This document shows positions 4,312-64,000 of a DNA stretch of 64,000 nt, piece after piece. Position numbers and translations under genes: made by a program. The first letter of the stretch is position 1. Each line of letters begins with the position of its first letter. Below the pieces are notes generated by a model that did no database searches, had not been told where the DNA came from, and was given only the letters and a program-made list of their open reading frames with translations. The DNA comes from Candidatus Izemoplasmatales bacterium (GTDB lineage: Bacteria; Bacillota_I; Bacilli_A; Izemoplasmatales; Hujiaoplasmataceae): NCBI GenBank assembly GCA_050949045.1, contig JBMNEZ010000001.1, positions 108,716 through 172,715 of the forward strand, given 5' to 3'.

Positions 4312-4379
4312 TTGTTTGAAAAAGCATTATTATGTTTGTATGCGACTATGTAAACGACAAAATAAATGTGAGGAAATCT

Positions 4380-5810: not shown

Positions 5811-5826
5811 TTGAGGAGAAGTGCTA

Positions 5827-19090: not shown

Positions 19091-19091
19091 A

Positions 19092-21802: not shown

Positions 21803-21824
21803 TGCATACTCCTTTATTTGACAA

Positions 21825-25100: not shown

Positions 25101-26566
25101 CCTTCCAACTCAAAGCCCTTGAATCCGTTGCTATTCGCATCGGCATAATCATAAGAAGCCATATCTTGCAAATTAACATCGAGTTTCATAATCTGAAATT
25201 CGCCAGGATTGAGAAGATTTGTCTTTGCATAGGCAACCAGATTTACGGAAGCTTTTTCGATTTCTCCTCTTGTATAAGGAGCCTGTGAATAGATTTCCAC
25301 TACTTCTTTGCCTGCCTCATCACCAGTATTCGTCACTTTGACGATCAGAGAAACCGTCTTAATCTTGGCAGGCGAGAATAATGAAGAACTGATATCCGCT
25401 TCATCAAGTTCACTGTGTGTGATCGACAAGATTTCCGTATTAAAGCTGGCATAAGACAAACCATAGCCGAATGGATAGACGACATTGTCGGCATACCATG
25501 CGTCTGCCTGGGCTAAGCCGCCCGGCGAGCCGGCTTTACTCAATACGCCGTCGACATAATTCAGGTTTCCAGCCAGAATTTCCGCGTAAACGGTCTCATA
25601 ATACTTGTATCCGATATAGATATCTTCGGAATAATCCACACCATGCAGAGAAATCGGGACCGGTTGGCTGCCGTCTTCTCTTAAATATTTGTTGCTGCCA
25701 GCATCATTTTGAACGTTCGCAATGGAGTTGTACCAAGTTGGATCGAGCGAAAAGTCTTTTGGCCACACGTCAACGAGTTTGCCAGAGGGGTTCCACTCGC
25801 CGCTTAACAATTTTGGAATCGCCTTGATCCCATTTGCGCCGGGACGTCCGATATACATAATCGCATCCACTTTATTGTCATTATGAAGATTGTACATCTC
25901 CATTGGAGTGGATGTATTAAGAAGAACGACGACTTTGTCGCAGAGAGCCGCGGCCTTATCGATCATAGCAATTTCCTTTGCTGTAAGCATCAGGAAGTGT
26001 TTGAGATCGTTACCGTCTGAGTTTCTAGCCAAGCGTTTATGTTGCCAACCGCCGATGTTTTCTACTGCATCATTGGCAAGTTCGCTTGTTGCTACAGCAA
26101 GGTCTGATCCTTCACCGCCACCGCGTTTGAGAACCACAACTGCCACATCAGCGAATCCTTCAACATCTTTTGAGGCTGCCCCTGCAGCAGCATCCTCATT
26201 GATCAGAGTTGGATTCACCTCAAACCCATCGGCATCAAGCACGTCGATTACTTTATGGCTACCGCCCTGTAAAGAAGCTGCCGCAGCACCGAATACCGTT
26301 ACGCCTTTGGCTTTGCTAAAAGGCAAGGCGTTATCTTTGTTCTTGAGCAGAACAGAGCCTTCTCCGGTAAGTTGAATATTCAATTCTGCAGCTGCGGCAG
26401 TAGCTTCGTCCTGCGTCTCATAGGTGGGAATCGCAATCCCGCCGTTGGCAGCGTAGGCACGAGAGCCGCTAAACAGGTATGCTGATACCGCAGTCGCAAG
26501 CGCCAAAGTCAAAACCAGCATACATTTTCCAAGTATAAACCCGTTGTTTTTGCTTCTTCCTTTCAT
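21956..26566 (-). CDS. Giant secreted GH3-family glycosidase B (1536 aa): permuted GH3 core with large inserts, He_PIG domain, collagen-like stalk, Cys-containing C-terminal sorting signal
   Basis: AGGAGG ribosome-binding site. Signal peptide ...[11 protein letters not shown]. Motif order: [26 protein letters not shown], then [12 protein letters not shown] and GKEVVEIY, then [18 protein letters not shown] and [31 protein letters not shown], (G-X-Y)24, and the terminus PISGCGSS + TM + KRRKSD. Confidence 0.85.
22064..22279 (-). repeat. Collagen-like (G-X-Y)24 tract including 6 x 18-bp GDPGAK repeats
   Basis: GPAGPAGEK(GDPGAK)x6 [27 protein letters not shown] read in frame on the minus strand. 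Confidence 0.9.
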
Positions 26567-44915: not shown

Positions 44916-46082
44916 ATGTTAAAAAAACTACTTATTCTACTGACTATCTTCGTATCAACAACAATACTAATAGCGTGTGTTGATACAACGACAACTGTGG
45001 GTATGGTTAAAACAACAACGACTGTTTCTGGTTCCACAAGTACTTCTGTTACCAATACTCCCAAAACAACTACTTCCGCGATCTCCCCTTCCACAACAAC
45101 CACTTCCATCAGCACCGCCCCTCCCGGGACAACCACTTCCATCAGCACCGCCCCTCCCGGGACAACCATTCCCATTAGTACCACTCTTCCCGTAACAACC
45201 ACTGACGGCACGACTTCGATCAATACCGGACCGGCGACATTGAATTATCAAGGCGCCGCATTGGCCAATGGTACAGTTGGGATACAATACTCTGCTAACA
45301 TCAATACCGCAACCGGCGCTAGTGGAATCACATACTCTTTGAAGTCGGGAAGTTTGCTTCCAGACGGATTGTCGCTTGCAGGAGGTATTATCACAGGGAT
45401 TCCGACTGTCGCAGGGACAAAGCAATTTGTAATTGTTGCCGACGCGAGCAACGCGGTTGCCCCAGTAGAAGCGACTTTCACGATTGTAATCGAAGAAGAA
45501 GAGCCTACTGGTCCAAAAACATACATTTTTGAAGCCGAATATGTTGATTTCACCGATGTTTGGGGTTCAGGGTGGTCAAATACCCAAACCGAATGGGGGA
45601 TGGTTGCCGGCGATGGGGTCACAACACCGGTAAGCAATGGGATGTATGTCGCCTACTTTGTTCCCCCGGCGGGATCTTTAAAATTCCCCTTCACTTCTGA
45701 TGCAGCGGGGACAGGTAAACTAACCTTCTCTATGGTCTCGGAGTATGTTAAAAACTGGTTTGGCGAATTTGATGCGATTCATCTGAATCCCGAGATCATG
45801 AAACTCAAGATTAATGGCACCGAGATAAGCTACGAGGTATTTGTATTGGGTGTTAACGGACCTACAGAAGCCTTCAAAGAATACGTCTTTTTGGAAGAAT
45901 TTGCCATTCGTCAAGGTGAAAACATGATTGAGATTATCATGGAATCATCCAACGATTATTTCCCCGGAAGAGTTGGGGGAGGCCCAAACGTTGACTACAT
46001 GAAGATCGAATCTGAATTGAACTTGGTTATGAAAAAAACTTGTTCGACAGTCGATGAAGTCATCTTACGACGAGGTTATTAA
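44916..46082 (+). CDS. Surface lipoprotein C: Thr-rich linker, He_PIG-type Ig domain, C-terminal CBM6/35-like domain
   Basis: GGAGGA ribosome-binding site. MLKKLLILLTIFVSTTILIAC lipobox. T/S/P-rich linker. LPDGLSLAGGIITGIPT. C-terminal YIFEAEYVDF...KINGTE...IRQGENMIEI...VDYMKI. Confidence 0.8.
   Translation: MLKKLLILLTIFVSTTILIACVDTTTTVGMVKTTTTVSGSTSTSVTNTPKTTTSAISPSTTTTSISTAPPGTTTSISTAPPGTTIPISTTLPVTTTDGTTSINTGPATLNYQGAALANGTVGIQYSANINTATGASGITYSLKSGSLLPDGLSLAGGIITGIPTVAGTKQFVIVADASNAVAPVEATFTIVIEEEEPTGPKTYIFEAEYVDFTDVWGSGWSNTQTEWGMVAGDGVTTPVSNGMYVAYFVPPAGSLKFPFTSDAAGTGKLTFSMVSEYVKNWFGEFDAIHLNPEIMKLKINGTEISYEVFVLGVNGPTEAFKEYVFLEEFAIRQGENMIEIIMESSNDYFPGRVGGGPNVDYMKIESELNLVMKKTCSTVDEVILRRGY
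45096..45161 (+). repeat. 2 x 33-bp perfect direct repeat in the Thr-rich linker
   Basis: ACAACCACTTCCATCAGCACCGCCCCTCCCGGG occurs twice in tandem (TTTSISTAPPG x2). Confidence 0.9.
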
Positions 46083-46658: not shown

Positions 46659-46758
46659 CTAGGACAGTCGATTTTTCTTTATTCAGTATTAAATTTAGGT
46701 TAAATATATAATATAAATTTGACAATATTTTCCAATGATTTACAGAGGGGGAAAAAAG

Positions 46759-49716
46759 ATGAAGATAATATGGAAAAACTTAAGCACAAGAATATGGCTA
46801 ATCATATCAGCAATACTTTCTTTCTTAATGCTCATAACCATAATAGCTGTGCAAATACCGTTTTTGAGTCAAACGATGAATACATTGTTTGGCGGAGAAA
46901 GAAGAATCATTACCAGCCCTTCCGGCGAGAGTTATATGTATTATGAATCTGATTACTTTTCGAAAGCGTTGACCTTGCAAGAGGCCAATAAACTTAACGA
47001 ACAAATCGTCGGAGAAGGCGTAGTGCTTCTAAAAAATGATAATAACGCGCTTCCAATTACCGGCTCTAAAGATATTAGTGTTTTTGGCAAGAATTCAGTC
47101 AATCTAGTTTATGGCGGATCGGGATCCGGTGAAAAAAGCGATATGCTCGATACGGATTTATATAGCAGTTTAGAAGACGCGGGATTTACGACAAATCCTA
47201 TTTTAAAAGCGTTTTATAAAGATAACTCCAAGTCTGGTAACGGGCGACCAGCCAATCCTTCAATCGGCGCTCAGTTAACCGGATTTCCAACTGGAGAAAC
47301 ACCAATTTCAAGTTATACACAGGATGTCAGGAACAGTTATAACCAATATGATGACGCCGCGATTGTCGTTTTTTCGAGAATCGGCGGTGAGGGCTATGAT
47401 CTTCCGAGAACGATGCAAGTAAGCTTTACTGATCCTTCTGCAGTAGAAGGGGCTTCCAGCGCCCAGGATCACTATCTTCAGCTAGACGCCAATGAAAAGG
47501 CGCTTCTTGAAGAAGTAAAAGCAAACTTCAGCAAAGTAATCGTTTTGATCAACAGCGCTACGACGATGGAACTGGGCGATCTTCAAGACGATGATGAAAT
47601 CGACAGTATTCTTTGGATTGCCACAACCGGAGGAACGGGAATCAATGCAGTAGGTGATGTGTTGAGCGGCAAGATCAACCCTTCCGGTCGTACTGTCGCG
47701 ACATATGCAAGAAACTTTAGAAACGATCCGACTTGGCATAACTTCGCATATAACGGTGTTAAAAACGGCAACCGTTACGTGGTTGGCGAAATTAATAGAC
47801 CGTTCTATTTCGTTGATTATGAGGAAGGCATCTATGTCGGGTACCGTTATTATGAAACCAGAGGATTTGAAGAGATAAAGGCCAATCCAGCTAGCACGTG
47901 GTACGAAGACAATGTCGTTTATCCTTTTGGTTTCGGATTGAGTTATACATCGTTTAAATGGGAAATAAGCTCCACATCATACCCTGATGAGTCCGTCTTG
48001 ACTAAAAACGGAGTTATTGAAGTGACAGTGAAAGTTAAAAACACAGGCACTGTAAAAGGCAAAGAAGTTGTCCAATTATATTACACGGCGCCATATACGA
48101 ATGGCGGCATCGAAAAAGCCCATGTCGTGTTGGGGGCATTTGCCAAGACCAATGTGCTAAATCCTAACCAAAGCCAAGAACTAAAATTGAGCCTAAAAGT
48201 CATGGATATGGCATCTTATGATTATAATGATGCCAATAACAACGGATTTAAAGGTTATGAACTTGAAGGCGGGAACTATGAGATCAAAATTATGAAAAAC
48301 GCTCATGAACTGGTTGATTCTCTGACATACTCGGTTCCTGCAGGTGGGTTCAAAGTCGACTCTGATACCGAGTATGGAGTTCAGCCTGAAAATCGTTTTG
48401 ATGATGTCAGTTCCAAGATTAATAGTGTTAATGTCGAGCAAACCGGCGGAACGATGACACTTATGTCAAGGGCGAATTTCGCTGGCACGATGCCTTCGAC
48501 ACCGACTCTCGCCGATCGTACAGTTAGTTCCGGATTCATTGACAGTCTAGCCTATCCCCAACAACCATGGACTGTGGATCAGGGCAAGCCGTATTACACA
48601 GCTAATGCTCCGATTCAGGCAAGTTCGGAACTATCGGAAAACGAAGTCAATTTAATGCTTTACGACATGATCGGCGTCGCTTACGATGATCCTTCATGGG
48701 ACACTTTCCTCAACCAATTGACGGTCGGGCAGATGGCTACTCTGATTGGCAGCGGCAACTTCCACACCGAGCCGCTTGTCAACCTCGGAAAACCGCGGAC
48801 AACGGATCCCGACGGACCTGTCGGGTTCACCAATTTCATGGAAATCGGCGAAGCCACCGTCTATGACACCTGTTTTTATGCCAGTCCCTCGATTGTCGCG
48901 GCCACTTGGAACGTCGAACTCGCTTTTGAACAAGGCAAGATGGTCGGCAACGAAGGCATTTGGGGGAATGACCGGGGCGATCAGGCTCCTTATTCGGGCT
49001 GGTACGCTCCCGCTGTCAATATCCACCGGACTCCCTTCTCGGGTAGGAACTGGGAATATTACAGTGAAGATGGATTCTTGTCGGGTAAAATGGCAGCCAA
49101 TGTGATTTTGGGAGCGAAGGAAAAAGGGGTCTACACCTTTATCAAACACTTTGCCGTCAACGATCAGGAGACGAACCGCGATTCGAACGGCTTGTTGACA
49201 TGGCTTGACGAGCAGACGATGCGCGAGATCTATTTGAAACCGTTCGAGATGGCTGTCAAGGAAGGCAAGACGACCGCGATTATGTCATCATTTAACAGAC
49301 TCGGCAAGGTTTGGGCAGGCGGAAGCTACGAATTGCTGACGGAAGTGTTGCGGAACGAATGGGGATTTAAAGGCACGGTTATCACCGACTACAACGTTTA
49401 TGCCCATATGCCCGCAGACCAGATGATTCGTGCCGGTGGCGATTTGAACCTGATCCAAGACAAGCGTCCGACGACATCAAACGAAGCTTTGACCAGCACT
49501 CAGATATCATTGATGCGCCAAGCTTCAAAGAACATCCTGTTCACCGTAGTCAACAGCAACGCGATGAACGGCTTGGGGGCCAACGCCACCATCAGATACA
49601 TTTTGCCGCGTTGGAAAGTTGCGATGATCATCATCGAAAGTTCAATTGCCGGGTTGATTATAATCTCCGGGGCCATCTTGATTACTAGTGTTTACAAAAA
49701 GAAACCGATTGTTTAA
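46759..49716 (+). CDS. Doubly membrane-anchored permuted GH3 glycosidase C'
   Basis: I moved the start to MKIIWKNLSTRIWLIISAILSFLMLITIIAV (GAGGGGG ribosome-binding site). Motif order: LLKNDNNALPI, IGGEGYDLP, NPSGRTV, then YPFGFGLSYTSF and GKEVVQLY, then [49 protein letters not shown]-terminal PRWKVAMIIIESSIAGLIIISGAILITSVYKKK. Confidence 0.85.
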   Translation: MKIIWKNLSTRIWLIISAILSFLMLITIIAVQIPFLSQTMNTLFGGERRIITSPSGESYMYYESDYFSKALTLQEANKLNEQIVGEGVVLLKNDNNALPITGSKDISVFGKNSVNLVYGGSGSGEKSDMLDTDLYSSLEDAGFTTNPILKAFYKDNSKSGNGRPANPSIGAQLTGFPTGETPISSYTQDVRNSYNQYDDAAIVVFSRIGGEGYDLPRTMQVSFTDPSAVEGASSAQDHYLQLDANEKALLEEVKANFSKVIVLINSATTMELGDLQDDDEIDSILWIATTGGTGINAVGDVLSGKINPSGRTVATYARNFRNDPTWHNFAYNGVKNGNRYVVGEINRPFYFVDYEEGIYVGYRYYETRGFEEIKANPASTWYEDNVVYPFGFGLSYTSFKWEISSTSYPDESVLTKNGVIEVTVKVKNTGTVKGKEVVQLYYTAPYTNGGIEKAHVVLGAFAKTNVLNPNQSQELKLSLKVMDMASYDYNDANNNGFKGYELEGGNYEIKIMKNAHELVDSLTYSVPAGGFKVDSDTEYGVQPENRFDDVSSKINSVNVEQTGGTMTLMSRANFAGTMPSTPTLADRTVSSGFIDSLAYPQQPWTVDQGKPYYTANAPIQASSELSENEVNLMLYDMIGVAYDDPSWDTFLNQLTVGQMATLIGSGNFHTEPLVNLGKPRTTDPDGPVGFTNFMEIGEATVYDTCFYASPSIVAATWNVELAFEQGKMVGNEGIWGNDRGDQAPYSGWYAPAVNIHRTPFSGRNWEYYSEDGFLSGKMAANVILGAKEKGVYTFIKHFAVNDQETNRDSNGLLTWLDEQTMREIYLKPFEMAVKEGKTTAIMSSFNRLGKVWAGGSYELLTEVLRNEWGFKGTVITDYNVYAHMPADQMIRAGGDLNLIQDKRPTTSNEALTSTQISLMRQASKNILFTVVNSNAMNGLGANATIRYILPRWKVAMIIIESSIAGLIIISGAILITSVYKKKPIV

Positions 49717-50156: not shown

Positions 50157-50882
50157 TTAACTTTCCTTTTTTTCCAGTTCTTCTTTTTTCTCTTTACTTT
50201 GTGGGAATATGACTTTGAAGATTGGGAAGAATACCCAGAAGGAGATCGCGGAGTAGATGATCATGGTAATGAAGTCGGCGATCGTTTCACCGGTTGCGCC
50301 CCAACCCCAAATATTCATAAGCAAATTGTAGATCGGTACCGTGTACAACCCTCTGGCGGCCGAGGCAAAGATGGTTATCGCCACATAGGCGACAGCGTAC
50401 CAAAAAGCGGCCTTCCAGGGATTGCCATCGGATTTGAATGTGATGTTTCTTTGGGCAAAGAAGTTGATGACCTGGGCAATTAACAAAGTGATTTGAACAG
50501 CGAGGAAAAAGGCGAGACCGCCACCACCGCCGCTTGCCAGAGTCCCGGCTTTAAAATCAAAGATAAAGTAGTCCGACCCATCAATGTTCTTCCCTAGTTG
50601 CCAGATTTGGAAATTAATGTTGATAAGATTGGTCTTCGCAAAAATGGCTTTCAGGATCGGCATCAAGATCATCTGTAAAACGGTAACGCCGTTACTTAAC
50701 ATGAAAAACACAAGAAATTGAGCTACGTTCGGGAATCTCTTTTTGAACTTTTTCCAGAGATTGACCCACCATTGGACAAAACGGGATTGACCTAACTTTC
50801 TAAAAAATTCTTTGACTTTACTTGGTTTTTCTTCTTGTGTGACCGGAGCTTCAACTTCGGCCATTTCTTTTTCTTCACTCAT
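50157..50882 (-). CDS. GtrA-like polytopic membrane protein with an acidic N-terminal extension
   Basis: 4-5 TM helices. GtrA-type block LLIAQVINFFAQRNITFKS. The start overlaps the GH3 stop (ATGA). Confidence 0.55.
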   Translation of the reverse strand: MSEEKEMAEVEAPVTQEEKPSKVKEFFRKLGQSRFVQWWVNLWKKFKKRFPNVAQFLVFFMLSNGVTVLQMILMPILKAIFAKTNLININFQIWQLGKNIDGSDYFIFDFKAGTLASGGGGGLAFFLAVQITLLIAQVINFFAQRNITFKSDGNPWKAAFWYAVAYVAITIFASAARGLYTVPIYNLLMNIWGWGATGETIADFITMIIYSAISFWVFFPIFKVIFPQSKEKKEELEKKES

Positions 50883-53329
50883 GCCTCTTTCACCTTTCTA
50901 TTTTTTGTTTTATTTTTCTTTGAACGTTTTTTTCCTTCCGCAAAGAATTTGCCCAAGCCTTTGAAGAAGCGGCCGTTGAACATCATGATCAGGCCATCAA
51001 GCTGTCCCATGGTGATCATCCCGCCGGACATATGGGCGAGCCCTCGCATTGGCAAATGGAGAACTCCCATTGCCAGAGTATTGGACAATGATCTCATTCC
51101 AAAGAAACGAAGGAACTTGATCGCAAAGCGGACGCCACCGGAAAAAGCTCTTCCGACCCACCGCTTGGAGTACCTCAACTGTTCAACGGTCGTGTTGTAT
51201 CCAACAACGAGGCGGTTCTTTTTATAAAAATCATATGTTGCCTTCGGCACGGGACGGCCGAGGATGTTTTCGAATTCTTCGCTTGAGACGTCTTGGATCT
51301 TACCTGTCGTATAAAGAGGAATCTTCGATAATGATACCGGCGACTTCAGTTCCGTTCCTGTGACAGAGACCACTTTGCTCAATTTGATATCTTGGGAGGA
51401 GGAGCCTACCATAATATCATAATCCGCAGTCTCGACTTCCCATTGATTGGTGAGCGGATTATAGGTTTCAAAGGCTTCCTTGTCGAGCTTGATCTTGACT
51501 GTCTTGCTTTCTCCTGGGCGGAGTTCGACTTTTGAGAATCCTTTTAGTTCTTTTTGTGGGCGGTAAACTTTTGAGTTCTTCGCGCGAATATAAACTTGGA
51601 CAACCTCTTTGCCGGGCATTTTTCCGGTGTTCTTGAGTTTGAAACTCACTTCTTCAAAAGAGGCCGAGAGATCGGAATAAGCAAAAGAGGTATAGGACAG
51701 ACCATAGCCGAATGGATATCTGGGTTTGACGCCGGCAGTATCGAAGTAGCGGTAACCGACATATAGGCCTTCGCGGTATTCGGCAGTCATCTGTTTGCCG
51801 GGATAATTTTGGGAAGTGGGCGTATCCTCATATTTGAAGGGAATCGTTTCGGAGAGTTTCCCCGAGGGATTCACCTTTCCGACAAGGATATTCAGTGCAG
51901 CTCTTGCGCCGGCTTGCCCTGCAAGCGAAGTATGGAGGATAGCGTCTGAACGATCCGCAAAATCCATTTCAACGGCACTGCCGCAAGCTAGGACAACGAC
52001 AAGTTTCTTGCCGAGGCTGGCGAGTTTGTCGAACAACTCCATCTGATTAAGCGGCAGTTTGAGATTGCTGCGGTCGATTCCTTCGACTTCGCTAAATTCG
52101 TCAAGACCGATATACAACAAGATTGTGTCTGCTTTCTTGGCAAGTTTGACTGCTTTTCTGATTCGACAGCTGCTTTTTCTGCCATAGCGACTATAACCCT
52201 GCTCGTAACCAACGTATTGAAGATCATACTCACCAATGGCGTCAACGGCATTGTCCAGCTTTGTCGGATTTACTATCGAAGAGCCGGCTCCCTGATAACG
52301 AGGTTTCTTGGCGAAGTCACCGATGATGGCGACTTTCTCCTGTGACTTAAGCGGGAGAGCGCCCTTGTCATTTTTTAAAAGGACGATTGACTCTTCCGCG
52401 ATCTTCTGCGCTAACAGGTGATTGGCTTCGTTATCAATAACGACCTTGCTTTCCTTGACAGCTTTGCTTGTGTCAAAGATCAAAGTCAATAGTCTATCAA
52501 GGTTCTCGTCAAGCAGCGATTCGGGGATGGTTCCGTTTTTGACAGCCGCGACGATTTCGTCATTTGTCTCTCCGCCTGTGGTTGGCATTTCCAATTCATT
52601 TCCGGCTATCAATCCCTTAACCCGGTCGTTCGATCCGCCCCAGTCGCTGACGACAACTCCCGGGTACTTCCATTCTCCACGAAGGATGTCTCGCATAAGG
52701 GGGATATTCTCATTGGTATATTCGCCGTTGACTTTGTTGTAAGAGGACATGATGACTTTCGGCTTTCCTTCTTTGATGCCGATTTCAAACGGTCTGAGGT
52801 AGATTTCTCTCAAGGTGCGTTCATCGATGATTGAATCAACGGCCATCCTTCGGAATTCCTGATTGTTGGCGGCGAAGTGTTTCAAACAGCCGGAAACACC
52901 GGCTGACTGGATTCCTCTGATGTAAGCGGCGGCCATCTTTCCGGCAAGCAGGGGATCTTCGCTGAAATACTCGAAGTTACGTCCGCAGAGCGGGTTTCTT
53001 TTGATGTTGATTCCCGGGCCAAGGACAACGTTGACTTTCTGGCTGACTGCCTCTTTGCCGAGAGAAGTACCCAGCTCCTCACCGAGTTTTTCATCCCAGC
53101 TGTTGGCGACAGTGGCGGAAGTTGGATAGCACGTTGCCGGAATACTGGCATTTAGCCCTAACTGGTCGGCAGCGGCCGCTTGTTTCCTTAGACCGTGGGG
53201 CCCATCCGAAAGAAAAATACTGGGAATTCCGAGTTTCTCCAGATTCATTGTGGTCCAGAAGTCTTTACCCGACATAAAAGAGGCTTTTTCTTCCAAAGTC
53301 ATTTTCTGGATGATTGCTTGATTTTTCAT
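50879..53329 (-). CDS. Cytoplasmic GH3 beta-glucosidase-like enzyme, canonical domain order, copy 1 (816 aa)
   Basis: I moved the start to MKNQAIIQKMTLEEKA, as in copy 2. SDGPHGLRK, KHFAANNQEFRR, VVVSDWGG (nucleophile motif), then [30 protein letters not shown] and GKEVVQVY. No signal peptide. Confidence 0.9.
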   Translation of the reverse strand: MKNQAIIQKMTLEEKASFMSGKDFWTTMNLEKLGIPSIFLSDGPHGLRKQAAAADQLGLNASIPATCYPTSATVANSWDEKLGEELGTSLGKEAVSQKVNVVLGPGINIKRNPLCGRNFEYFSEDPLLAGKMAAAYIRGIQSAGVSGCLKHFAANNQEFRRMAVDSIIDERTLREIYLRPFEIGIKEGKPKVIMSSYNKVNGEYTNENIPLMRDILRGEWKYPGVVVSDWGGSNDRVKGLIAGNELEMPTTGGETNDEIVAAVKNGTIPESLLDENLDRLLTLIFDTSKAVKESKVVIDNEANHLLAQKIAEESIVLLKNDKGALPLKSQEKVAIIGDFAKKPRYQGAGSSIVNPTKLDNAVDAIGEYDLQYVGYEQGYSRYGRKSSCRIRKAVKLAKKADTILLYIGLDEFSEVEGIDRSNLKLPLNQMELFDKLASLGKKLVVVLACGSAVEMDFADRSDAILHTSLAGQAGARAALNILVGKVNPSGKLSETIPFKYEDTPTSQNYPGKQMTAEYREGLYVGYRYFDTAGVKPRYPFGYGLSYTSFAYSDLSASFEEVSFKLKNTGKMPGKEVVQVYIRAKNSKVYRPQKELKGFSKVELRPGESKTVKIKLDKEAFETYNPLTNQWEVETADYDIMVGSSSQDIKLSKVVSVTGTELKSPVSLSKIPLYTTGKIQDVSSEEFENILGRPVPKATYDFYKKNRLVVGYNTTVEQLRYSKRWVGRAFSGGVRFAIKFLRFFGMRSLSNTLAMGVLHLPMRGLAHMSGGMITMGQLDGLIMMFNGRFFKGLGKFFAEGKKRSKKNKTKNRKVKEA

Positions 53330-53345
53330 AATTAAGGATCGTCCA
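50905..53345. repeat. Segmental duplication copy 1 (partner 56984-59424, offset 6079 bp, direct)
   Basis: Collinear near-identity over ~2.44 kb, with roughly a dozen substitutions spotted by eye. The flanks are homologous but much more diverged. Confidence 0.9.
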
Positions 53346-53414
53346 ATCTGTATGAAATTTTGAAAAACTAGCGACAATGTCTTTATTGACTTAAGCGCTA
53401 ACAACTATATTAAC

Positions 53415-53423
53415 ATTCTATCA
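53415..53423 (-). promoter_or_regulatory. Extended -10 (TGaTAGAAT) upstream of GH3 copy 1; conserved at 59498-59506
   Basis: ATGATAGAAT is conserved upstream of both copies despite flank divergence. Confidence 0.4.
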
Positions 53424-53482
53424 TATAAATAAGATAGCGCCACGACATTGAGCATATTTTGTTGATATCTAGGCATACATTG

Positions 53483-55884: not shown

Positions 55885-56922
55885 TTAACCCAGTTTGATA
55901 CGGCGAGTCAATATTTTATATCCGGCGGTCATTATGATGCCCCTGAGACGCCAGGGCAGCCAATTGACTATCACAGGCATTCCCCTCCATCTAAGGAAAC
56001 GGTAGAGATCACGGTCACGATCCTTGACATATTTCCATAATTTAGACAAGGCTTGGCGCCGTTCTTTTCCGTCTTTTGCGACCGTGAAGAAGATCGTGAT
56101 CATCATGATGGCCGACAGACAGTGAAGCATATATCTTCTAAGACCTTTCTCCATCTTCATGATTTGGGCATAACTATGTGCGTTGATCATTTCCTTCATC
56201 ACTCTGATTTGCTGGTCATATCGGTTGGTGAAAACACGGATATTGACGGATTGATCCACACGTCCGATGAAGTAGTGATAAAGGTTGATGTCAAGATAGT
56301 AGAGATTCTGCATTTCTGGAAGCGGGGCATAGGAATAGATATTGTCGACATAAAACGTATGGTGAGGCAACTTAAGCCCGCTTTTGCGCAATTTTTCTGT
56401 TTTGTAGGTCAGCGAATGCATCATGATGACCTGGGCGGCATAAAATTTTCCAACTTGTGACCATCTTAAAAAGCAGTTGCTTTTGAAATGGCGTGAGAAG
56501 CGCCTGACAAAAAATTTGCCCTCATTAACTTTGTCATAGACAAAGTTCGTAATGTAGAGGTCTGGCAGTTTCTTTTCCAAAAGGTGCTCTTTGATTGTCG
56601 ATAGCAATGTATGAAGTGACGACGTGTCAAGCCAGTCGTCGGAATCGACAACTTTGAAATAGAGTCCGGTCGCATTTTCCAAGCCGGCATTTACACCAGA
56701 TCCGTGGCCACCATTGGCTTGGGAGATCACCTTGACGATATTTGGGTATTTTTTTTCATATTGACGGGCAATCTTTTCAGTGCCATCGGTCGACCCATCA
56801 TTAATGATGATGATCTCGACCTCGTCGCCGCCGGGGATCAACGAATCCAAGCAATGTGACAAATAAGCTTCGGAATTATACGCGGGCACAGCGAATGTAA
56901 GAAACTTTTCTTTAGGCGCCAT
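55885..56922 (-). CDS. Family 2 glycosyltransferase
   Basis: FAVPAYNSEAYL...IIINDGSTDGT...VVDSDDWLD (GT-A fold, DxD). AAGGAAG ribosome-binding site. Confidence 0.85.
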   Translation of the reverse strand: MAPKEKFLTFAVPAYNSEAYLSHCLDSLIPGGDEVEIIIINDGSTDGTEKIARQYEKKYPNIVKVISQANGGHGSGVNAGLENATGLYFKVVDSDDWLDTSSLHTLLSTIKEHLLEKKLPDLYITNFVYDKVNEGKFFVRRFSRHFKSNCFLRWSQVGKFYAAQVIMMHSLTYKTEKLRKSGLKLPHHTFYVDNIYSYAPLPEMQNLYYLDINLYHYFIGRVDQSVNIRVFTNRYDQQIRVMKEMINAHSYAQIMKMEKGLRRYMLHCLSAIMMITIFFTVAKDGKERRQALSKLWKYVKDRDRDLYRFLRWRGMPVIVNWLPWRLRGIIMTAGYKILTRRIKLG

Positions 56923-56961: not shown

Positions 56962-59408
56962 ACACTTGTCGCTTGAGTTTTCTTTGCTTTATTTTTCTTT
57001 GAACGTTTTCTTCCTTCCGCAAAGAATTTGCCCAAGCCTTTGAAGAAGCGGCCGTTGAACATCATGATCAGGCCATCAAGCTGTCCCATGGTGATCATCC
57101 CGCCGGACATATGGGCAAGCCCTCGCATTGGCAGATGGAGAACTCCCATTGCCAGAGTGTTGGATAATGATCTCATTCCAAAGAAACGAAGGAACTTGAT
57201 CGCGAAGCGGACGCCACCGGAAAAAGCTCTTCCGACCCACCGCTTGGAGTACCTCAACTGTTCAACGGTCGTGTTGTATCCAACAACGAGGCGGTTCTTT
57301 TTATAAAAATCATATGTTGCCTTCGGCACGGGACGGCCGAGGATGTTTTCGAATTCTTCGCTTGAGACGTCTTGGATCTTACCTGTCGTATAAAGAGGAA
57401 TCTTCGATAATGATACCGGCGACTTCAGTTCCGTTCCTGTGACAGAGACCACTTTGCTCAATTTGATATCTTGGGAGGAGGAGCCTACCATAATATCATA
57501 ATCCGCAGTCTCGACTTCCCATTGATTGGTGAGCGGATTATAGGTTTCAAAGGCTTCCTTGTCGAGCTTGATCTTGACTGTCTTGCTTTCTCCTGGGCGG
57601 AGTTCGACTTTTGAGAATCCTTTTAGTTCTTTTTGTGGGCGGTAAACTTTTGAGTTCTTCGCGCGAATATAAACTTGGACAACCTCTTTGCCGGGCATTT
57701 TTCCGGTGTTCTTGAGTTTGAAACTCACTTCTTCAAAAGAGGCCGAGAGATCGGAATAAGCAAAAGAGGTATAGGACAGACCATAGCCGAATGGATATCT
57801 GGGTTTGACGCCGGCAGTATCGAAGTAGCGGTAACCGACATATAGGCCTTCGCGGTATTCGGCAGTCATCTGTTTGCCGGGATAATTTTGGGAAGTGGGC
57901 GTATCCTCATATTTGAAGGGAATCGTTTCGGAGAGTTTCCCCGAGGGATTCACCTTTCCGACAAGGATATTCAGTGCAGCTCTTGCGCCGGCTTGCCCTG
58001 CAAGCGAAGTATGGAGGATAGCGTCTGAACGATCCGCAAAATCCATTTCAACGGCACTGCCGCAAGCTAGGACAACGACAAGTTTCTTGCCGAGGCTGGC
58101 GAGTTTGTCGAACAACTCCATCTGATTAAGCGGCAGTTTGAGATTGCTGCGGTCGATTCCTTCGACTTCGTTAAATTCGTCAAGACCGATATACAACAAG
58201 ATTGTGTCTGCTTTCTTGGCAAGTTTGACTGCTTTTCTGATTCGACAGCTGCTTTTTCTGCCATAGCGACTATAACCCTGCTCGTAACCAACGTATTGAA
58301 GATCATACTCACCAATGGCGTCAACGGCATTGTCCAGCTTTGTCGGATTTACTATTGAAGATCCGGCTCCCTGATAACGAGGTTTCTTGGCGAAGTCACC
58401 GATGATGGCGACTTTCTCCTGTGACTTAAGCGGGAGAGCGCCCTTGTCATTTTTTAAAAGGACGATTGACTCTTCCGCGATCTTCTGCGCTAACAGGTGA
58501 TTGGCTTCGTTATCAATAACGACCTTGCTTTCCTTGACAGCTTTGCTTGTGTCAAAGATCAAAGTCAATAGTCTATCAAGGTTCTCGTCAAGCAGCGATT
58601 CGGGGATGGTTCCGTTTTTGACAGCCGCGACGATTTCGTCATTTGTCTCTCCGCCTGTGGTTGGCATTTCCAATTCATTTCCGGCTATCAATCCCTTAAC
58701 CCGGTCGTTCGATCCGCCCCAGTCGCTGACGACAACTCCCGGGTACTTCCATTCTCCACGAAGGATGTCTCGCATAAGGGGGATATTCTCATTGGTATAT
58801 TCGCCGTTGACTTTGTTGTAAGAGGACATGATGACTTTCGGCTTTCCTTCTTTGATGCCGATTTCAAACGGTCTGAGGTAGATTTCTCTCAAGGTGCGTT
58901 CATCGATGATTGAATCAACGGCCATCCTTCGGAATTCCTGATTGTTGGCGGCGAAGTGTTTCAAACAGCCGGAAACACCGGCTGACTGGATTCCTCTGAT
59001 GTAAGCGGCGGCCATCTTTCCGGCAAGCAGGGGATCTTCGCTGAAATACTCGAAGTTACGTCCGCAGAGCGGGTTTCTTTTGATGTTGATTCCCGGGCCA
59101 AGGACAACGTTGACTTTCTGGCTGACTGCCTCTTTGCCGAGAGAAGTACCCAGCTCCTCACCGAGTTTTTCATCCCAGCTATTGGCGACAGTGGCGGAAG
59201 TTGGATAGCACGTTGCCGGAATACTGGCATTTAGCCCTAACTGGTCGGCAGCGGCCGCTTGTTTCCTTAGACCGTGGGGCCCATCCGAAAGAAAAATACT
59301 GGGAATTCCGAGTTTCTCCAGATTCATTGTGGTCCAGAAGTCTTTACCTGACATAAAAGAGGCTTTTTCTTCCAAAGTCATTTTCTGGATGATTGCTTGA
59401 TTTTTCAT
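56958..59408 (-). CDS. Cytoplasmic GH3 beta-glucosidase-like enzyme, canonical domain order, copy 2 (816 aa)
   Basis: Same motifs as copy 1. GGAGGA ribosome-binding site. It differs from copy 1 by S->N in GLDEF(S/N)EVEG and in the last ~20 residues. Confidence 0.9.
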   Translation of the reverse strand: MKNQAIIQKMTLEEKASFMSGKDFWTTMNLEKLGIPSIFLSDGPHGLRKQAAAADQLGLNASIPATCYPTSATVANSWDEKLGEELGTSLGKEAVSQKVNVVLGPGINIKRNPLCGRNFEYFSEDPLLAGKMAAAYIRGIQSAGVSGCLKHFAANNQEFRRMAVDSIIDERTLREIYLRPFEIGIKEGKPKVIMSSYNKVNGEYTNENIPLMRDILRGEWKYPGVVVSDWGGSNDRVKGLIAGNELEMPTTGGETNDEIVAAVKNGTIPESLLDENLDRLLTLIFDTSKAVKESKVVIDNEANHLLAQKIAEESIVLLKNDKGALPLKSQEKVAIIGDFAKKPRYQGAGSSIVNPTKLDNAVDAIGEYDLQYVGYEQGYSRYGRKSSCRIRKAVKLAKKADTILLYIGLDEFNEVEGIDRSNLKLPLNQMELFDKLASLGKKLVVVLACGSAVEMDFADRSDAILHTSLAGQAGARAALNILVGKVNPSGKLSETIPFKYEDTPTSQNYPGKQMTAEYREGLYVGYRYFDTAGVKPRYPFGYGLSYTSFAYSDLSASFEEVSFKLKNTGKMPGKEVVQVYIRAKNSKVYRPQKELKGFSKVELRPGESKTVKIKLDKEAFETYNPLTNQWEVETADYDIMVGSSSQDIKLSKVVSVTGTELKSPVSLSKIPLYTTGKIQDVSSEEFENILGRPVPKATYDFYKKNRLVVGYNTTVEQLRYSKRWVGRAFSGGVRFAIKFLRFFGMRSLSNTLAMGVLHLPMRGLAHMSGGMITMGQLDGLIMMFNGRFFKGLGKFFAEGRKRSKKNKAKKTQATSV

Positions 59409-59424
59409 AATTAAGGATCCTCCA
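56984..59424. repeat. Segmental duplication copy 2 (partner 50905-53345)
   Basis: See copy 1. Confidence 0.9.
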
Positions 59425-59497
59425 ATTTGTATTAAATTTTAAATAATACCAGCAACTATGTCTTTTAAAGGATTTAGCGCTGACATCTATTACTGAT

Positions 59498-59506
59498 ATT
59501 CTATCA
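59498..59506 (-). promoter_or_regulatory. Extended -10 (TGaTAGAAT) upstream of GH3 copy 2
   Basis: Conserved with 53415-53423. Confidence 0.4.
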
Positions 59507-59598
59507 TAAATACAAGAATGCATGCCATAATAATAATGAAATTTACTATTGTTAAAATTTTAGCGTATTGATAATAAAGATTAAAAATGACTTTCTTG

Positions 59599-59643
59599 TC
59601 AATTTCGTGGAATTTCTTCGATGAACACGAAAATGATTCTCAT
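59599..59643 (-). pseudogene. 14-codon vestige of a LytTR response-regulator 5' end immediately after lgt
   Basis: ATGAGAATCATTTTCGTGTTCATCGAAGAAATTCC... (MRIIFVFIEEIPRN*) aligns with the RR2 start ATGAGAATCAAGGTCGCAATCGTCGAAGACAATCC (MRIKVAIVEDNP). It has the same ATGA overlap with the lgt stop as seen at 55542-55545. Confidence 0.6.
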
Positions 59644-60455
59644 TGTTCACTTTTAGAAATAGGCAAGTCAGTTGCCTTCTTGTTTGTTTTTGCTTTGCAT
59701 AGCAAAATGATGCCAGTTATCATGAGTAAGAAACTCAAATACTGTGAAGGGGTTGGAAAAACATTGTGTTCAGTGGTGATGAAGCCAAAGATACTGCCGC
59801 GGTCGTCTCCGCGGATCAGTTCCAACAATATCCTCCAGCCGCCGTAGGCGATAAGATATGTTTCCAGTTGATAACCCCTCAAGCATTTGAGATTGGCAAG
59901 CACGAAAAACAAAACGAACAGAAATAACGCTTCGAACAACTGAACCGGAAAGAGAGGAATTCCAGGAAAGGCATCATGAGCATGGCCGTGGGGAAAGACC
60001 ACACCGAGAAAGGAATCAGTCGGAATTCCGTAACAACAGCCGGCTAGGAAACAACCGATCCGACCAAAGGCATGCGCAAGGACAACACCGATGATCACAG
60101 TGTCCATAATGCTTTTTATGCCTCTGTTATCAGCTTTATAGACGAACTTCAAGAGAACAAGCAAACAGGCGACGCCGCCGATAAGGCCACCGAGGAAAGA
60201 GATCGTTCCGAAAGACCACTTGCCCTCTTTGATGGAATGGAATATCCCATCGAACAAGAATGAGGAGAACAAAGCGAATAACAAAGAGACAATAAGCAAC
60301 ACCAATAGTTTATTGGATTGCTTTCTATTCAGCCCGTCATGATTCTCGAGTCTTCTGGCAACGAAAACGAGCATTAACAATACTCCCACACAAATCATCA
60401 AGTCATATAGAGGAATAGTATAGCCGAACACTTCCGGCAACAAGAATGGATACAT
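59640..60455 (-). CDS. lgt: Prolipoprotein diacylglyceryl transferase
   Basis: I moved the start to MYPFLLPEVFGY (AAGGAGGGG 4 nt upstream). Lgt-type blocks GRIGCFLAGCCYG, FPVQLFEA and YGGWRILLELIRGD. Confidence 0.8.
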   Translation of the reverse strand: MYPFLLPEVFGYTIPLYDLMICVGVLLMLVFVARRLENHDGLNRKQSNKLLVLLIVSLLFALFSSFLFDGIFHSIKEGKWSFGTISFLGGLIGGVACLLVLLKFVYKADNRGIKSIMDTVIIGVVLAHAFGRIGCFLAGCCYGIPTDSFLGVVFPHGHAHDAFPGIPLFPVQLFEALFLFVLFFVLANLKCLRGYQLETYLIAYGGWRILLELIRGDDRGSIFGFITTEHNVFPTPSQYLSFLLMITGIILLCKAKTNKKATDLPISKSEQ

Positions 60456-60597
60456 GGGACCCCTCCTTATCAAATATTGTATCATTTGTTGGCATATTCA
60501 CGCACTCTCTTTAATGAATTAGGTATGAAAATATTGTTTGAGAAGGATTTTCATCATCTCATCGACAGAATCAATATAGATGTATGATAAAATATAA

Positions 60598-61752
60598 TTG
60601 AATGATACGATAGAAAACAAAAATAAAAAAGGCAGGTGCATCATTATAAAAAAATATGATTATTTGATTGTTGGTTGTGGTTTGTTCGGAGCAACTTTCG
60701 CCGAAAAGATGCATAGTTTTGGAAAACGTTGTCTCATTATCGACAAGAGAGACCACATAGCGGGAAACGCCTATACAGAAAGAAAAAACGGCATTTTGGT
60801 TCATGTTTACGGAGCCCACATCTTTCATACCAATGACGAGGAAGTTTGGAACTATGTTAACCGTTTTTCCCGTTTTTCCCGTTTTATCAACTCGCCACTT
60901 GCGTATTACAAAGGCGAAATCTACAATCTTCCCTTCAACATGAACACCTTTTCAAAAATGTGGAAAATCACCACTCCCAAAGAAGCAAAAGAAATCATCG
61001 AAAAACAAAGAAAAGAGTACGGAGTTCCAAATCCGGTCAATCTGGAAGAACAAGCGATCAATTTGGTTGGGAAAGACATCTACGAGAAACTCATTAGAGG
61101 TTATACAATGAAACAATGGGGTGTCGATCCCAAAAAATTACCTCCTTCCATCATCAAACGGCTGCCGGTCAGATATACGTACGACAATAATTATTTTAAC
61201 GACTATTACCAAGGTATTCCCGAAAAAGGTTATACTGCTCTGGTCGAGAACATGATAAAGGGAATTGACCTGACCTTGAACGCCGATTACTTTGACAACA
61301 AATCCGTGTATGATGAATTAGCAGAAAAAATCGTTTATACGGGACCGATAGACCGTTTCTTTGACTATCGGTTTGGCCGACTTGGGTATCGTTCGCTTCG
61401 TTTCGAACACGAGCTGTTACCAATTGCTAATTTCCAAGGTAATGCCGTGGTTAACTACACGGATTTTGCGATACCCTATACAAGAATCATCGAACATAAA
61501 TTCTTTGAGAAAAATGATCAAGAAGAAACCATCGTCACCAGAGAGTATCCAGCCGATTTTACAAAGACAAAAGAACCCTATTATCCGATCAACGATGAGC
61601 ACAACACAAGAATTTATGAACAATATCGCGACCAAAGTAAAGATTATCCAAACATCATTTTTGGCGGCAGGTTGGCCGAGTATCGCTACTATGATATGCA
61701 TCATGTTATCAAGAGTGCACTCAATATGGCAAATATGCTTATGCATAAGTAA
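60598..61752 (+). CDS. glf: UDP-galactopyranose mutase
   Basis: YDYLIVGCGLFGATFA FAD fold, GAHIFHTND, and C-terminal FGGRLAEYRYYDMH. The start codon is uncertain: there is no good ribosome-binding site at 60598, so the true start may be a non-ATG codon a few codons before YDYLIVG. Confidence 0.85.
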   Translation: MNDTIENKNKKGRCIIIKKYDYLIVGCGLFGATFAEKMHSFGKRCLIIDKRDHIAGNAYTERKNGILVHVYGAHIFHTNDEEVWNYVNRFSRFSRFINSPLAYYKGEIYNLPFNMNTFSKMWKITTPKEAKEIIEKQRKEYGVPNPVNLEEQAINLVGKDIYEKLIRGYTMKQWGVDPKKLPPSIIKRLPVRYTYDNNYFNDYYQGIPEKGYTALVENMIKGIDLTLNADYFDNKSVYDELAEKIVYTGPIDRFFDYRFGRLGYRSLRFEHELLPIANFQGNAVVNYTDFAIPYTRIIEHKFFEKNDQEETIVTREYPADFTKTKEPYYPINDEHNTRIYEQYRDQSKDYPNIIFGGRLAEYRYYDMHHVIKSALNMANMLMHK

Positions 61753-61794
61753 GTAGATCTCTCAATTTTAAATACTTGGTCAAAAACAACAAAA

Positions 61795-61830
61795 AACTGT
61801 CAATTAAGTCCGATTGACAGTTTTATTTCT
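61795..61830 (+). terminator. glf terminator
   Basis: AACTGTCAAT, loop taagtccg, ATTGACAGTT, then TTATTTCTT. Confidence 0.75.
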
Positions 61831-62045
61831 TAGACGAATATTATGCTTACTTGCAAATGGCATTAGACGCTCATCCCACTCGCTGGGAGCGTTGCCTTTG
61901 CGGTTAATAATGAGCACATCACCGCCAAAACCAACAGTATTGATTAAAAAGGTAAAAATATCGGAAAGGTGGATTGAATTATTGTATAATCGGTTATATA
62001 ATTTATAATATAAAAACTTAATGATATTTTTAGAGGAGATTCATA

Positions 62046-64000
62046 ATGAAAAAACTAATTATGTTAGGTTTCGCATCTCTTTTTTTTATTGCTCTCGTAG
62101 CTTGTGACGAACTTACTAGCATATCGGGCTTGCCGACTAATCCCTTTACGACAATAAGCGATGTCGTGACAACCACTACCACTGACACCGAGACCACTTC
62201 AGTTGGTCAAAAAACAACAACCATTACTACCGTACCGGTTACGACCACTGCACCAACAACCAAAGTTACTACTGCACCGGTTACGACAGCGGTACCAACA
62301 ACTACTGTTACTACTGTACCGGTTACTACAACGATGCCAACAACCACTGTTACTACTGCACCGGTGACAACAACAGAGGAACCAATCGAAGAAGATCCTT
62401 TTGTTCCGGGAGCTGGAGGTGTTCTTGCCGAAAGGGCACCGTCAGAAAACGCAGAAGGAAAATTCGGAGGTCTCATGCTCGCCAAGGTCAATTGCTGGCG
62501 AAGCATTGTAGGTACCGATTACTTTGTCGAGATAGATTTCCCCTCTCCTAGCCAGTTTGATGGAACATCATATACCTTACAGTATTATGACACAGTCAGT
62601 TCGACATGGAAAGACTATGTATATTATGATAGGACTGTGACATTTACAGATGAAAATAACGGTTATTACGGTTTAACTGTGTCTGAGTCTCGAACTTTGA
62701 GGTTACTTTTGAATGGCGGTCCCATGGCGGGATACACATCCAATGAAGAAAGTTATACTTTGCCAACAATCAAATGCCGTTTCGACAGCTACACTGTCGA
62801 TATGAGTATCAATGAGGAAGGCATCATGTACCCTTACGTCGGTTTCACAACAAGAGCTTCCTTTGAAGCCACCAACTTCGAGGGTGAAACCGATATCGAT
62901 GTGACAAATACGCTGATTTACAAGTGGTATCGTGTTGATCCGGTTACTTATAAGCAAACCTTGATCGCTTCTGCGACCGGGCAGACCGAATACGATGCGA
63001 CAATGGATGATGCCGGCTACTATATCATGGTGAGGGCAGAAGGAGACCAAAACAGCTCCTCGGGTTTTTGGCAGGTATTGGTCGGGCCTGTCGTTGTCGC
63101 TAACCCTTGCTTTGTCAGAAACGAGAGCGCTACCGGATTCACTGTCAATCTTTACTATGAAGTTTCAGGGCTCGATCCGGCTTTGTTTGAGATTTTCGAT
63201 CAGGACTGGAATGAAGTTGATATTCTTTCCATTGTCAAGGGAGAAAATGATGCAACCTATATCATCACTATCGATGATGCGACCATCACCAACTTTTACT
63301 CGATCGCCTATAATAGCGGGTTTTGGACAATGCAGTTCAATATGTCCATGGGCGGTGGAGAATTCCATCATTTCACCGAGATATTGTTTGTCGAAGTTAT
63401 ACCGACAGAAGGAGAAGGAGAGCAAGAAGATCCCTTTATTCCGGGAGTTGGGGGTGTTCTTGCTGAAAGAACGCCGTCAGAAAACGCAGAAGGGAAATTT
63501 GGAGGTCTTATAATCACCGAGGCCGATTGCTGGCCAGGTTTTTCGGAGTCTCCTGAATACCGGGTTATCATTAATTACCTTTCCCCTGGCCTATTTGGTG
63601 GAACATCGTATACCTTACAGTATTATGATACAGCCAGTTCGACATGGAAAAACTATATGCATAATGATGAGGTTTTGACATTAACGACAGAAGTTGATGA
63701 TTATTACGGTCTTGCCACTTTAACTGTATCCGAGGCTCGTACTTTGAGGTTGCTTTTAAATGGCGGTCCCATGGCGGGATACACATCCAATGAAGATAGT
63801 TATATTCTGCCAACGATTAAATGCCGTTTCGACGGCTATGCTATCGATATGACCATCAACGAGGAAGGCATTATATACCCTTACGCCGGTTTCACATTGA
63901 GAGCTTCCTTTTCCGCCATCAATTTTGCGGGGGAAACCGATGTCGATGTGTCAGATACGCTGATTTACAAGTGGTATCGCGTTGATCCGGTCACCTATGA
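62046..64000 (+). CDS. Large surface lipoprotein with T/P/V-rich linker and ~345-aa tandem repeats of unknown fold (3'-partial; NOT in the supplied ORF track)
   Basis: GAGGAG sits 6 nt before the ATG. MKKLIMLGFASLFFIALVAC is a perfect lipobox. I translated the frame by hand to nt 64000 and found no stop. The track omits it, presumably because no stop lies inside the window. Confidence 0.8.
   Translation, partial: MKKLIMLGFASLFFIALVACDELTSISGLPTNPFTTISDVVTTTTTDTETTSVGQKTTTITTVPVTTTAPTTKVTTAPVTTAVPTTTVTTVPVTTTMPTTTVTTAPVTTTEEPIEEDPFVPGAGGVLAERAPSENAEGKFGGLMLAKVNCWRSIVGTDYFVEIDFPSPSQFDGTSYTLQYYDTVSSTWKDYVYYDRTVTFTDENNGYYGLTVSESRTLRLLLNGGPMAGYTSNEESYTLPTIKCRFDSYTVDMSINEEGIMYPYVGFTTRASFEATNFEGETDIDVTNTLIYKWYRVDPVTYKQTLIASATGQTEYDATMDDAGYYIMVRAEGDQNSSSGFWQVLVGPVVVANPCFVRNESATGFTVNLYYEVSGLDPALFEIFDQDWNEVDILSIVKGENDATYIITIDDATITNFYSIAYNSGFWTMQFNMSMGGGEFHHFTEILFVEVIPTEGEGEQEDPFIPGVGGVLAERTPSENAEGKFGGLIITEADCWPGFSESPEYRVIINYLSPGLFGGTSYTLQYYDTASSTWKNYMHNDEVLTLTTEVDDYYGLATLTVSEARTLRLLLNGGPMAGYTSNEDSYILPTIKCRFDGYAIDMTINEEGIIYPYAGFTLRASFSAINFAGETDVDVSDTLIYKWYRVDPVTY
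62394..64000 (+). repeat. At least 1.5 copies of a ~1.04-kb in-frame tandem repeat
   Basis: DPF(V/I)PG.GGVLAER.PSENAEGKFGG occurs at 62394 and 63429. LIYKWYRVDPVTY occurs at 62913 and 63960. Confidence 0.85.

Follow-up and report, generated by a model that had tools for sequence, protein, structure and literature searches.

The 64,000-nucleotide window analyzed here, from a Candidatus Izemoplasmatales bacterium (contig JBMNEZ010000001.1, positions 108,716 to 172,715), ends within a gene on its + strand that encodes a predicted surface lipoprotein. The protein has a lipoprotein signal peptide, a threonine-rich linker and two tandem copies of a large module, each of which is predicted with high confidence to fold into three consecutive immunoglobulin (Ig)/FN3-like β-sandwiches, termed D1, D2 and D3. 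We are nearly certain of this architecture, and favor, with a probability of about 55%, the reading that the protein is a lipid-anchored, adhesin-like binding tip carried on a stalk. The protein type itself, a lipid-anchored surface protein with Ig-like domains on a low-complexity stalk, is familiar, and GenBank has this one as a hypothetical protein. As far as the libraries searched show, the conserved D1-D2-D3 cassette, D1 above all, has not been described as a unit.

Lipoprotein precursor and tandem modules

On translation, the frame that begins at the ATG at 62046 runs without a stop through 651 codons to 64000, where the window ends, as claimed in an earlier note made from the sequence; it belongs to a genuine gene that the window truncates. 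A cluster look-up retrieved the full-length counterpart P0155 (MGI6392111.1, hypothetical protein ACOX16_00655 of Candidatus Izemoplasmatales bacterium), an 806-residue protein encoded on a 1.36-Mb contig. Its residues 1–651 are identical to the window product, and no overlooked stop or frameshift came to light. The window holds the 5′ 81% of the coding sequence (62046–64000, + strand; codons 1–651 of 806), and the TAA stop lies 466 nt past its end. The identical protein is called on four contigs, and two JGI loci match the window DNA with identities of 100% (L038) and 99.975% (L037). A further locus, L036 (ENA ERZ2647912 NODE_4833, coverage 1.04), matches the window at 98.9% identity and runs past its end; in a three-frame reading, its second repeat completes and is immediately followed by a stop. 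This reconstruction of the C-terminus was later superseded by the clean P0155, L037 and L038. L036 belongs to the same species and is indel-ridden, with 33 gaps per 3.9 kb against the window; its gene calls are fragmentary, and one of them (P0031) is a frameshifted chimera of the lipoprotein reading frames. The Logan short-read contigs that carry the upstream gene glf all end 232 residues into the lipoprotein open reading frame (ORF); the break is explained by an exact 38-nt stretch that both repeat copies share (residues 223 and 572).

The precursor consists of a 19-residue signal peptide, Cys20, a linker of 95 residues and modules of 345 and 346 residues. In the N-terminus MKKLIMLGFASLFFIALVAC, a basic n-region and a hydrophobic core precede a canonical lipobox, L-V-A-C, whose Cys20 is encoded at 62103–62105. 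The signal peptide MKKLIMLGFASLFFIALVA, which together with the lipobox cysteine covers 62046–62105 (+), can be read as MKK followed by LIMLGFASLFFIA and the L-V-A-C20 motif. Judged by eye, this motif fits the consensus [LVI][ASTVI][GAS]C, in agreement with the perfect lipobox (FFIALVAC) noted earlier. A T8 homopolymer at 62080–62087 lies within the signal-peptide codons (LFFI), and its length is constant in the assemblies compared. Relatives in Bacillota and Spirochaetes likewise carry Cys-containing lipoboxes. The prolipoprotein diacylglyceryl transferase Lgt (PF01790) is encoded two genes upstream, at 59640–60485 (−). The linker (residues 21–115; 62106–62390, +) contains 42 Thr, 13 Val and 10 Pro among its 95 residues and includes a 42-nt (14-residue) tandem repeat present in 3.9 copies at 62213–62374. 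Both its composition and this repeat bear out the T/P/V-rich linker with VTTAPVTT-like repeats described earlier. At the other end, the full protein terminates in ...YYYSEMWFVELEPIEE (closing residues WFVELEPIEE, also read from L036), and a C-terminal P.[ST]GC[GA]S motif with hydrophobic helix and basic tail, which the earlier note had suggested looking for, was not found at the end of the 806-residue protein.

The two modules start with EDPF at residues 116 and 461, respectively, so the repeat period is exactly 345 residues. Copy 1 spans residues 116–460 (62391–63425), and copy 2 begins at residue 461 (63426) and is cut by the window end, leaving its first 191 of 346 residues, corresponding to D1 and the start of D2, at 63426–64000 (+). 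Over these 191 visible residues the two copies share 70% protein identity (BLASTP E 5e-98) and 80% DNA identity, well beyond what chance would give, and the complete modules (345 versus 346 residues) are 71% identical. The module family profile matches the window protein with domain E-values of 9e-173 for module 1 and 3e-95 for the partial module 2 (hmmsearch). Tandem repeats of ~345 residues had been proposed in at least 1.5 copies; the repeats and their period stand, and the count is now settled at exactly 2.0. Exactly two modules are present in each of the three independent assemblies covering the whole gene (L036, L037 and L038), and the 97%-identical P0001 has a matching arrangement up to the point where its contig ends. 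Apart from P0001, which is the same protein, two modules occur only in P0006/P0156 and P0118.

Compared to the 71% identity between each other, the two modules share only 51–53% identity with the single modules of P0002 and P0005. Downstream of the lipoprotein gene lie a nitroreductase gene and a histidine-utilization (hut) operon, and P0002 is encoded upstream of a matching nitroreductase-hut block, with one Flg_new/LRR_5 gene between. Based on the greater likeness of the two modules to each other, and on the position of P0002 by the same block, the duplication arose within this lineage. The ratio of nonsynonymous to synonymous substitutions (dN/dS) between the two modules is 0.36, with a dS of 0.43, which indicates that both copies have been kept by selection.

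Fold, family and conserved residues of the module

The AlphaFold2 model of module 1, computed from a 38-sequence alignment, is all-β with 24 strands arranged in three blocks, at a predicted local distance difference test score (pLDDT) of 94.2 and a predicted template modeling score (pTM) of 0.88. The model places D1 at module residues ~1–126, D2 at ~127–233 and D3 at ~234–340, and the high pTM suggests that the three domains adopt a fixed mutual arrangement. In module 1, the predicted D1 (62391–62768, +) is a divergent FN3/Ig-like β-sandwich with the motifs F-x-P-G-x-G-G and GGPxxGYTSNE, with approximate boundaries read off the modeled secondary structure. The predicted D2 (62769–63089, +) is an Ig-like domain of the A9/SCAB type with the motif YKWYRVDPVTY...GATG..Y..T..D.GY.I.V.A.GD, and the segment comprising D3 (module residues 234–345; 63090–63425, +) forms a third β-sandwich according to the model and the Foldseek matches.

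Structural similarity search using Foldseek against the PDB aligned module 1 to chains of three Ig/FN3-like domains with E-values of 2e-5 to 1e-3, including the BIg domains of SiiE (E 2e-5) and the FN3 triplets of Tie2, contactin, neogenin and fibronectin, at a TM-score of ~0.2 and sequence identities of 10–12%. Together with the confidence of the model, these matches leave the earlier description of the repeat as being of unknown fold unsupported. In BFVD, the matches were confined to generic FN3 arrays in phage tail proteins (tip-attachment protein J). When D1 was folded alone (pLDDT 89), residues 129–165 were placed with D2 rather than D1. No close structural relative of D1 was found by Foldseek in the PDB, where the best match had an E-value of 0.019 and the TM-scores did not exceed 0.43, all against generic FN3/Ig domains. 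Among the weak D1 matches are Ig-like domains of glycoside hydrolase family 2 (GH2) and GH76 enzymes.

The D2 pattern is that of the AIR9-A9/SCAB Ig-like domains. The window protein scores 15.3 bits against IG_AIR9 (PF23197) at residues 291–329 (E 0.018), below the Pfam gathering threshold of 27.5 bits; the threshold for SCAB-Ig (PF16709) is 27.6 bits. P0002 scores 19.5 bits, and both families are sub-threshold in P0002–P0004. The two-module protein P0006 reaches a whole-protein score of 32.3 bits for both IG_AIR9 and SCAB-Ig, with each single stretch below the cut-off. D2 is probably related, at a distance, to the AIR9-A9/SCAB Ig group, with the window protein lying below the membership threshold.

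No curated family covering the module was found in Pfam, NCBIfam or PDB sequences with either single-sequence or profile queries, which agrees with the earlier statement that none of the repeat blocks was recognized as a known domain. Neither did a described carbohydrate-binding module (CBM) family emerge: Pfam gave no CBM match at E≤10, and the PDB-sequence profile search and the D1 structure search yielded none either. An intramolecular isopeptide or ester-bond adhesin domain was considered and rejected on inspection of the conserved columns, which include neither an invariant Lys nor a Thr/Gln pair. Searching the literature for bacterial A9 domains and for lipoproteins of Izemoplasma brought up nothing of use.

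A whole-protein word-index search gave just four relatives, since the Thr-rich linker dominated the candidate list, whereas module-only and profile searches revealed a large family. Searching 1.84 billion cluster representatives with a profile built from five module copies (A1) yielded 903 representatives at E≤1e-3 and 127 at E≤1e-30, most of which match the whole module once. The repeat is therefore neither rare nor an orphan. Among GTDB species genomes, a set to which the source genome of the window does not belong, 26 loci were found, all in metagenome-assembled genomes (MAGs), from Paludibacter and other Bacteroidales, Bacillota, Luteolibacter, Brevundimonas, Spirochaetes and a deltaproteobacterium. 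A comparison of 38 diverse members shows full or almost full conservation of F4, P6, G7, G10, R104, L105, G109, S117, N118, P148, W179, R181 and P184, and the motifs singled out in the earlier note correspond to the conserved columns of the family. The window protein combines a full-length profile match with the family motifs F-x-PGxGG, R-L-x(3)-GG-x(3)-G-x-x-S-N and W-Y-R-V-x-P.

Candidate binding tip and competing readings

Pfam scans covered 46 relatives, including 35 long members scanned together. In these 35, the partner domains, of anchoring and surface-repeat types, were SLH (13), Flg_new (9), Flg_new_2 (9), Big_2 (9), CarboxypepD_reg (6) and CWB2 (2); Cu_amine_oxidN1, FIVAR and cohesin/dockerin domains were further partners, in addition to the Por_Secre_tail of the type IX secretion system (T9SS) in Paludibacter proteins. 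Catalytic partners are nearly absent, with one FGE-sulfatase among the 35 long members. The short members from spirochaetes and Bacillota are lipoproteins, and every member examined is secreted or surface-anchored through a lipobox, SLH, CWB2 or T9SS tail.

The position of the module within these proteins follows a pattern. Among 86 full modules in 85 proteins, 36 are at the extreme C-terminus, 29 directly follow the signal peptide and 2 make up the protein by themselves, so that the module is terminal in 67 of 86 cases (78%). Where the anchor was located, the module sits mostly at the opposite end. An N-terminal lipobox, SLH or CWB2 pairs with a C-terminal module in P0002, P0003, P0005, P0010 and P0015, and a C-terminal T9SS tail pairs with an N-terminal module in P0004, P0153 and P0154. 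In P0033, the module lies near the N-terminus (residues 144–481) and the SLH at residues 2005–2042. Four SLH proteins (P0019, P0020, P0023 and P0024) have an internal module.

We propose that, after processing by Lgt and Lsp, the window protein would be tethered through diacylglyceryl-Cys20 to the outer surface of the cell's only membrane. The low-complexity Thr/Pro/Val linker would form an extended stalk, and both modules, which are rigid, would extend outward from it to serve as an adhesin-like binding head. The conserved D1 loops and the D1–D2 junction may form a putative binding site for a predicted ligand that is most plausibly a glycan, or else a particle or cell surface, and the lineage-specific duplication would double the reach or valency. 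A glycan is the most natural guess, because surface GH3, GH2 and rhamnosidase genes surround the lipoprotein gene. Several points weigh against this reading. No ligand or binding pocket is on record for any member of the family, and the conserved Gly/Pro-rich loops could serve as structural glue between domains rather than as a binding site. In addition, the module is internal in 19 of the 86 cases, the genomic context yields no functional clue since gene neighborhoods are not conserved (no conserved partner gene across the 10 loci compared), and the predicted lipidation and surface exposure derive from sequence features alone.

It is also conceivable, though rather unlikely, that the protein is a passive structural or coat component, in which the Ig-like modules form a protective spacer layer on the wall-less cell and bind no specific ligand. 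Generic Ig/FN3 arrays often act as spacers, the top Foldseek matches are stalk-type arrays, and numerous relatives belong to the S-layer-associated type of SLH or CWB2 protein. Spacers, however, typically consist of many internal repeats, whereas the cassette normally occurs once, at a terminus, which in the members checked is the one remote from the anchor, and the non-structural residues R104, N118 and R181 are invariant across phyla. It is the terminal position in 78% of members, together with the conserved polar residues, that leads us to favor a binding tip over a mere spacer. A carbohydrate-capture accessory, a specific sub-case in which a new CBM-like unit would bind glycans of plants or microbes and feed the surface GH3, GH2 and rhamnosidase enzymes of the region, would suit a window rich in extracellular glycosidases, as well as the weak structural matches of D1 to Ig-like domains of GH2 and GH76 and the CHB_HEX_C_1/Fn3_assoc or Glucodextran_B domains found in a few relatives. 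We consider it unlikely, given that the module matches no CBM family in sequence or structure and that a glycoside hydrolase catalytic domain occurs in the same protein in 0 of 46 relatives (Pfam). The neighboring genes also vary by genome, and those in common with P0002 are the nitroreductase and histidine-utilization genes.

Tandem repeats on two scales (42 nt and 1035 nt) in a Mollicute lipoprotein, and the T8 run in its signal-peptide codons, recall the size- or phase-variable surface antigens of mycoplasmas (Vlp/Vsa type), in which case changes in repeat number, or in a homopolymer at the 5′ end, would serve to evade recognition by phages or hosts. This is very improbable in view of the constant number of modules in the three spanning assemblies and the matching layout of P0001. 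Moreover, modules with 80% DNA identity and a longest exact match of 38 nt make a poor substrate for slippage, and both copies are under purifying selection. Least credible to us is a cryptic enzyme with R104, S117-N118-E119 and R181 as a catalytic site on the β-sandwich: the polar residues of the D1 loops are unusually conserved across phyla, but neither sequence nor fold resembles any enzyme family, and the architecture is typical of adhesin domains.

The adhesin-like binding tip may be generalized, tentatively, to the family as a whole. The D1-D2-D3 cassette could represent a phylum-spanning ligand-binding head at the tip opposite to a lipid, SLH, CWB2 or T9SS anchor, with D1 as a new glycan- or surface-binding class meriting a Pfam or CBM entry and the Izemoplasmatales protein as a rare bivalent version; we regard this wider proposal as possible, yet doubtful. 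If the module does bind a specific ligand, it would establish a new family of adhesin or CBM-like domains and provide an entry point to substrate attachment in these organisms; otherwise it would be just one more Ig-like building block. For the organism, an uncultured, wall-less and glycan-degrading Mollicute, the result adds one more surface protein and does not challenge current understanding. The more useful outcome is a three-domain module without a curated family in ~900 protein clusters across several phyla.

Gene context and comparison with known systems

The lipoprotein gene is monocistronic. The ribosome-binding site GAGGAG, reported earlier, is present at 62033–62038 (+), 7 nt 5′ of the ATG, and a promoter-like TTGAAT-17-TATAAT at 61974–62002 (+), 44 nt upstream of the ATG, matches the consensus at 10 of 12 positions and is a candidate by this match only. 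The upstream neighbor glf (60598–61752, +), named as UDP-galactopyranose mutase by PF03275, is closed by a terminator-like hairpin at 61793–61824 (+) with a 13-bp stem followed by a T-run; hence the lipoprotein gene forms its own transcription unit. A second hairpin terminator follows 25 nt after the TAA stop (L037 8446–8477). The absence of the gene from the mechanical ORF list is consistent with the explanation given before, as the list omits ORFs that run off the end. The five antisense ORFs named in that account (62207–62506, 62703–63050, 63165–63425, 63368–63571 and 63571–63813) are all in the list, and no independent evidence backs them.

Just upstream of the lipoprotein gene, a weak match to a GtrA-like membrane protein (50157–50882, −), a family 2 glycosyltransferase (GT2; 55885–56922, −) and Glf may constitute a possible pathway for a galactofuranose glycoconjugate. 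Two conventional GH3 genes at 50901–53425 (−) and 56979–59508 (−), encoding 841 and 816 residues, share 98.7% identity across 2,530 nt. This pair, ~6 kb apart and flanking a LytTR two-component system and the GT2 gene, is a very recent duplication.

The window also encodes six paralogous large GH3 proteins (16–4152, 5821–8769, 16016–19114 (−), 21956–26566 (−), 39577–44775 and 46735–49716). All six are permuted, with Glyco_hydro_3_C and an Fn3-like domain first and the Glyco_hydro_3 N-domain several hundred residues later, and several contain He_PIG Ig domains. Three of them are giant surface proteins (16–4152 (+), 21956–26566 (−) and 39577–44775 (+)) that end with P[VI][ST]GC[GA]S, a hydrophobic helix and a basic tail, a predicted C-terminal sorting signal that includes a Cys, here in a Mollicute lacking a cell wall. 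Collagen-like GDK/GPA repeats stand just ahead of the motif in two of the three. In NCBIfam, these C-termini gave near-threshold matches only, with 14.9 bits for LPXTG_anchor (cut-off 15.9) and an E-value of 0.029 for the myxosortase-dependent phytase C-terminus. A second lipoprotein-like ORF at 44916–46082 (+) encodes 388 residues with ...TTILIAC, a Thr-rich linker and no Pfam match. Over its last ~60 residues it is similar to the C-terminal ends of the Flg_new proteins encoded at 4332–5810 and 19685–21856 (GEN.I..I.S...), and the three may share a C-terminal domain that current models do not cover.

Among named proteins, MGI6392111.1 has the same sequence as the window product over 651 residues and supplies the C-terminus, and its annotation lacks a domain assignment. 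NLZ61853.1 from an Acholeplasmataceae bacterium is a partial, 97%-identical relative. P0002 (698 residues) and P0005 (455 residues), from Bacillota/Mollicute-like MAGs, resemble the window protein in having a signal peptide with Cys, a Thr-rich linker and a C-terminal module, but possess a single module each; the Cys context is the canonical LVAC in P0005 and non-canonical in P0002. An extra domain of ~180–220 residues lies between linker and module in P0002 (~175–357) and P0003 (~210–392) (loci L006–L010), with no Pfam match at E≤1. The T9SS type A sorting domain-containing proteins of Paludibacter (MDD5183753.1, that is P0008, and P0004) contain the same module with ~33–36% identity and conserve F-x-PGxGG, GGPxxGYTSNE and WYRVxPxT. 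They differ from the window protein in their C-terminal anchor (Por_Secre_tail, PF18962), in a module that directly follows the signal peptide, and in lacking both linker and duplication.

More distant comparisons concern the fold. D2 of the window protein shares the pattern Y-x-W-Y-R ... G-A-T ... Y ... D-x-G-Y with the AIR9 A9/SCAB Ig families, which were defined on plant cytoskeleton-associated proteins, and the match spans only ~40–60 of the 345 module residues. Candidatus Izemoplasmatales belongs to the Mollicutes, which have no cell wall. SiiE is a protein of 53 repeats that binds Ca2+ and is secreted by a type I secretion system. The predicted module resembles the three-sandwich chains of SiiE BIg (PDB 2yn5/2yn3; E 2e-5, probability 0.99), Tie2, the contactins and phage lambda gpJ, a likeness that, at a TM-score of ~0.2 and 10–12% identity, reflects a general fold class rather than homology.

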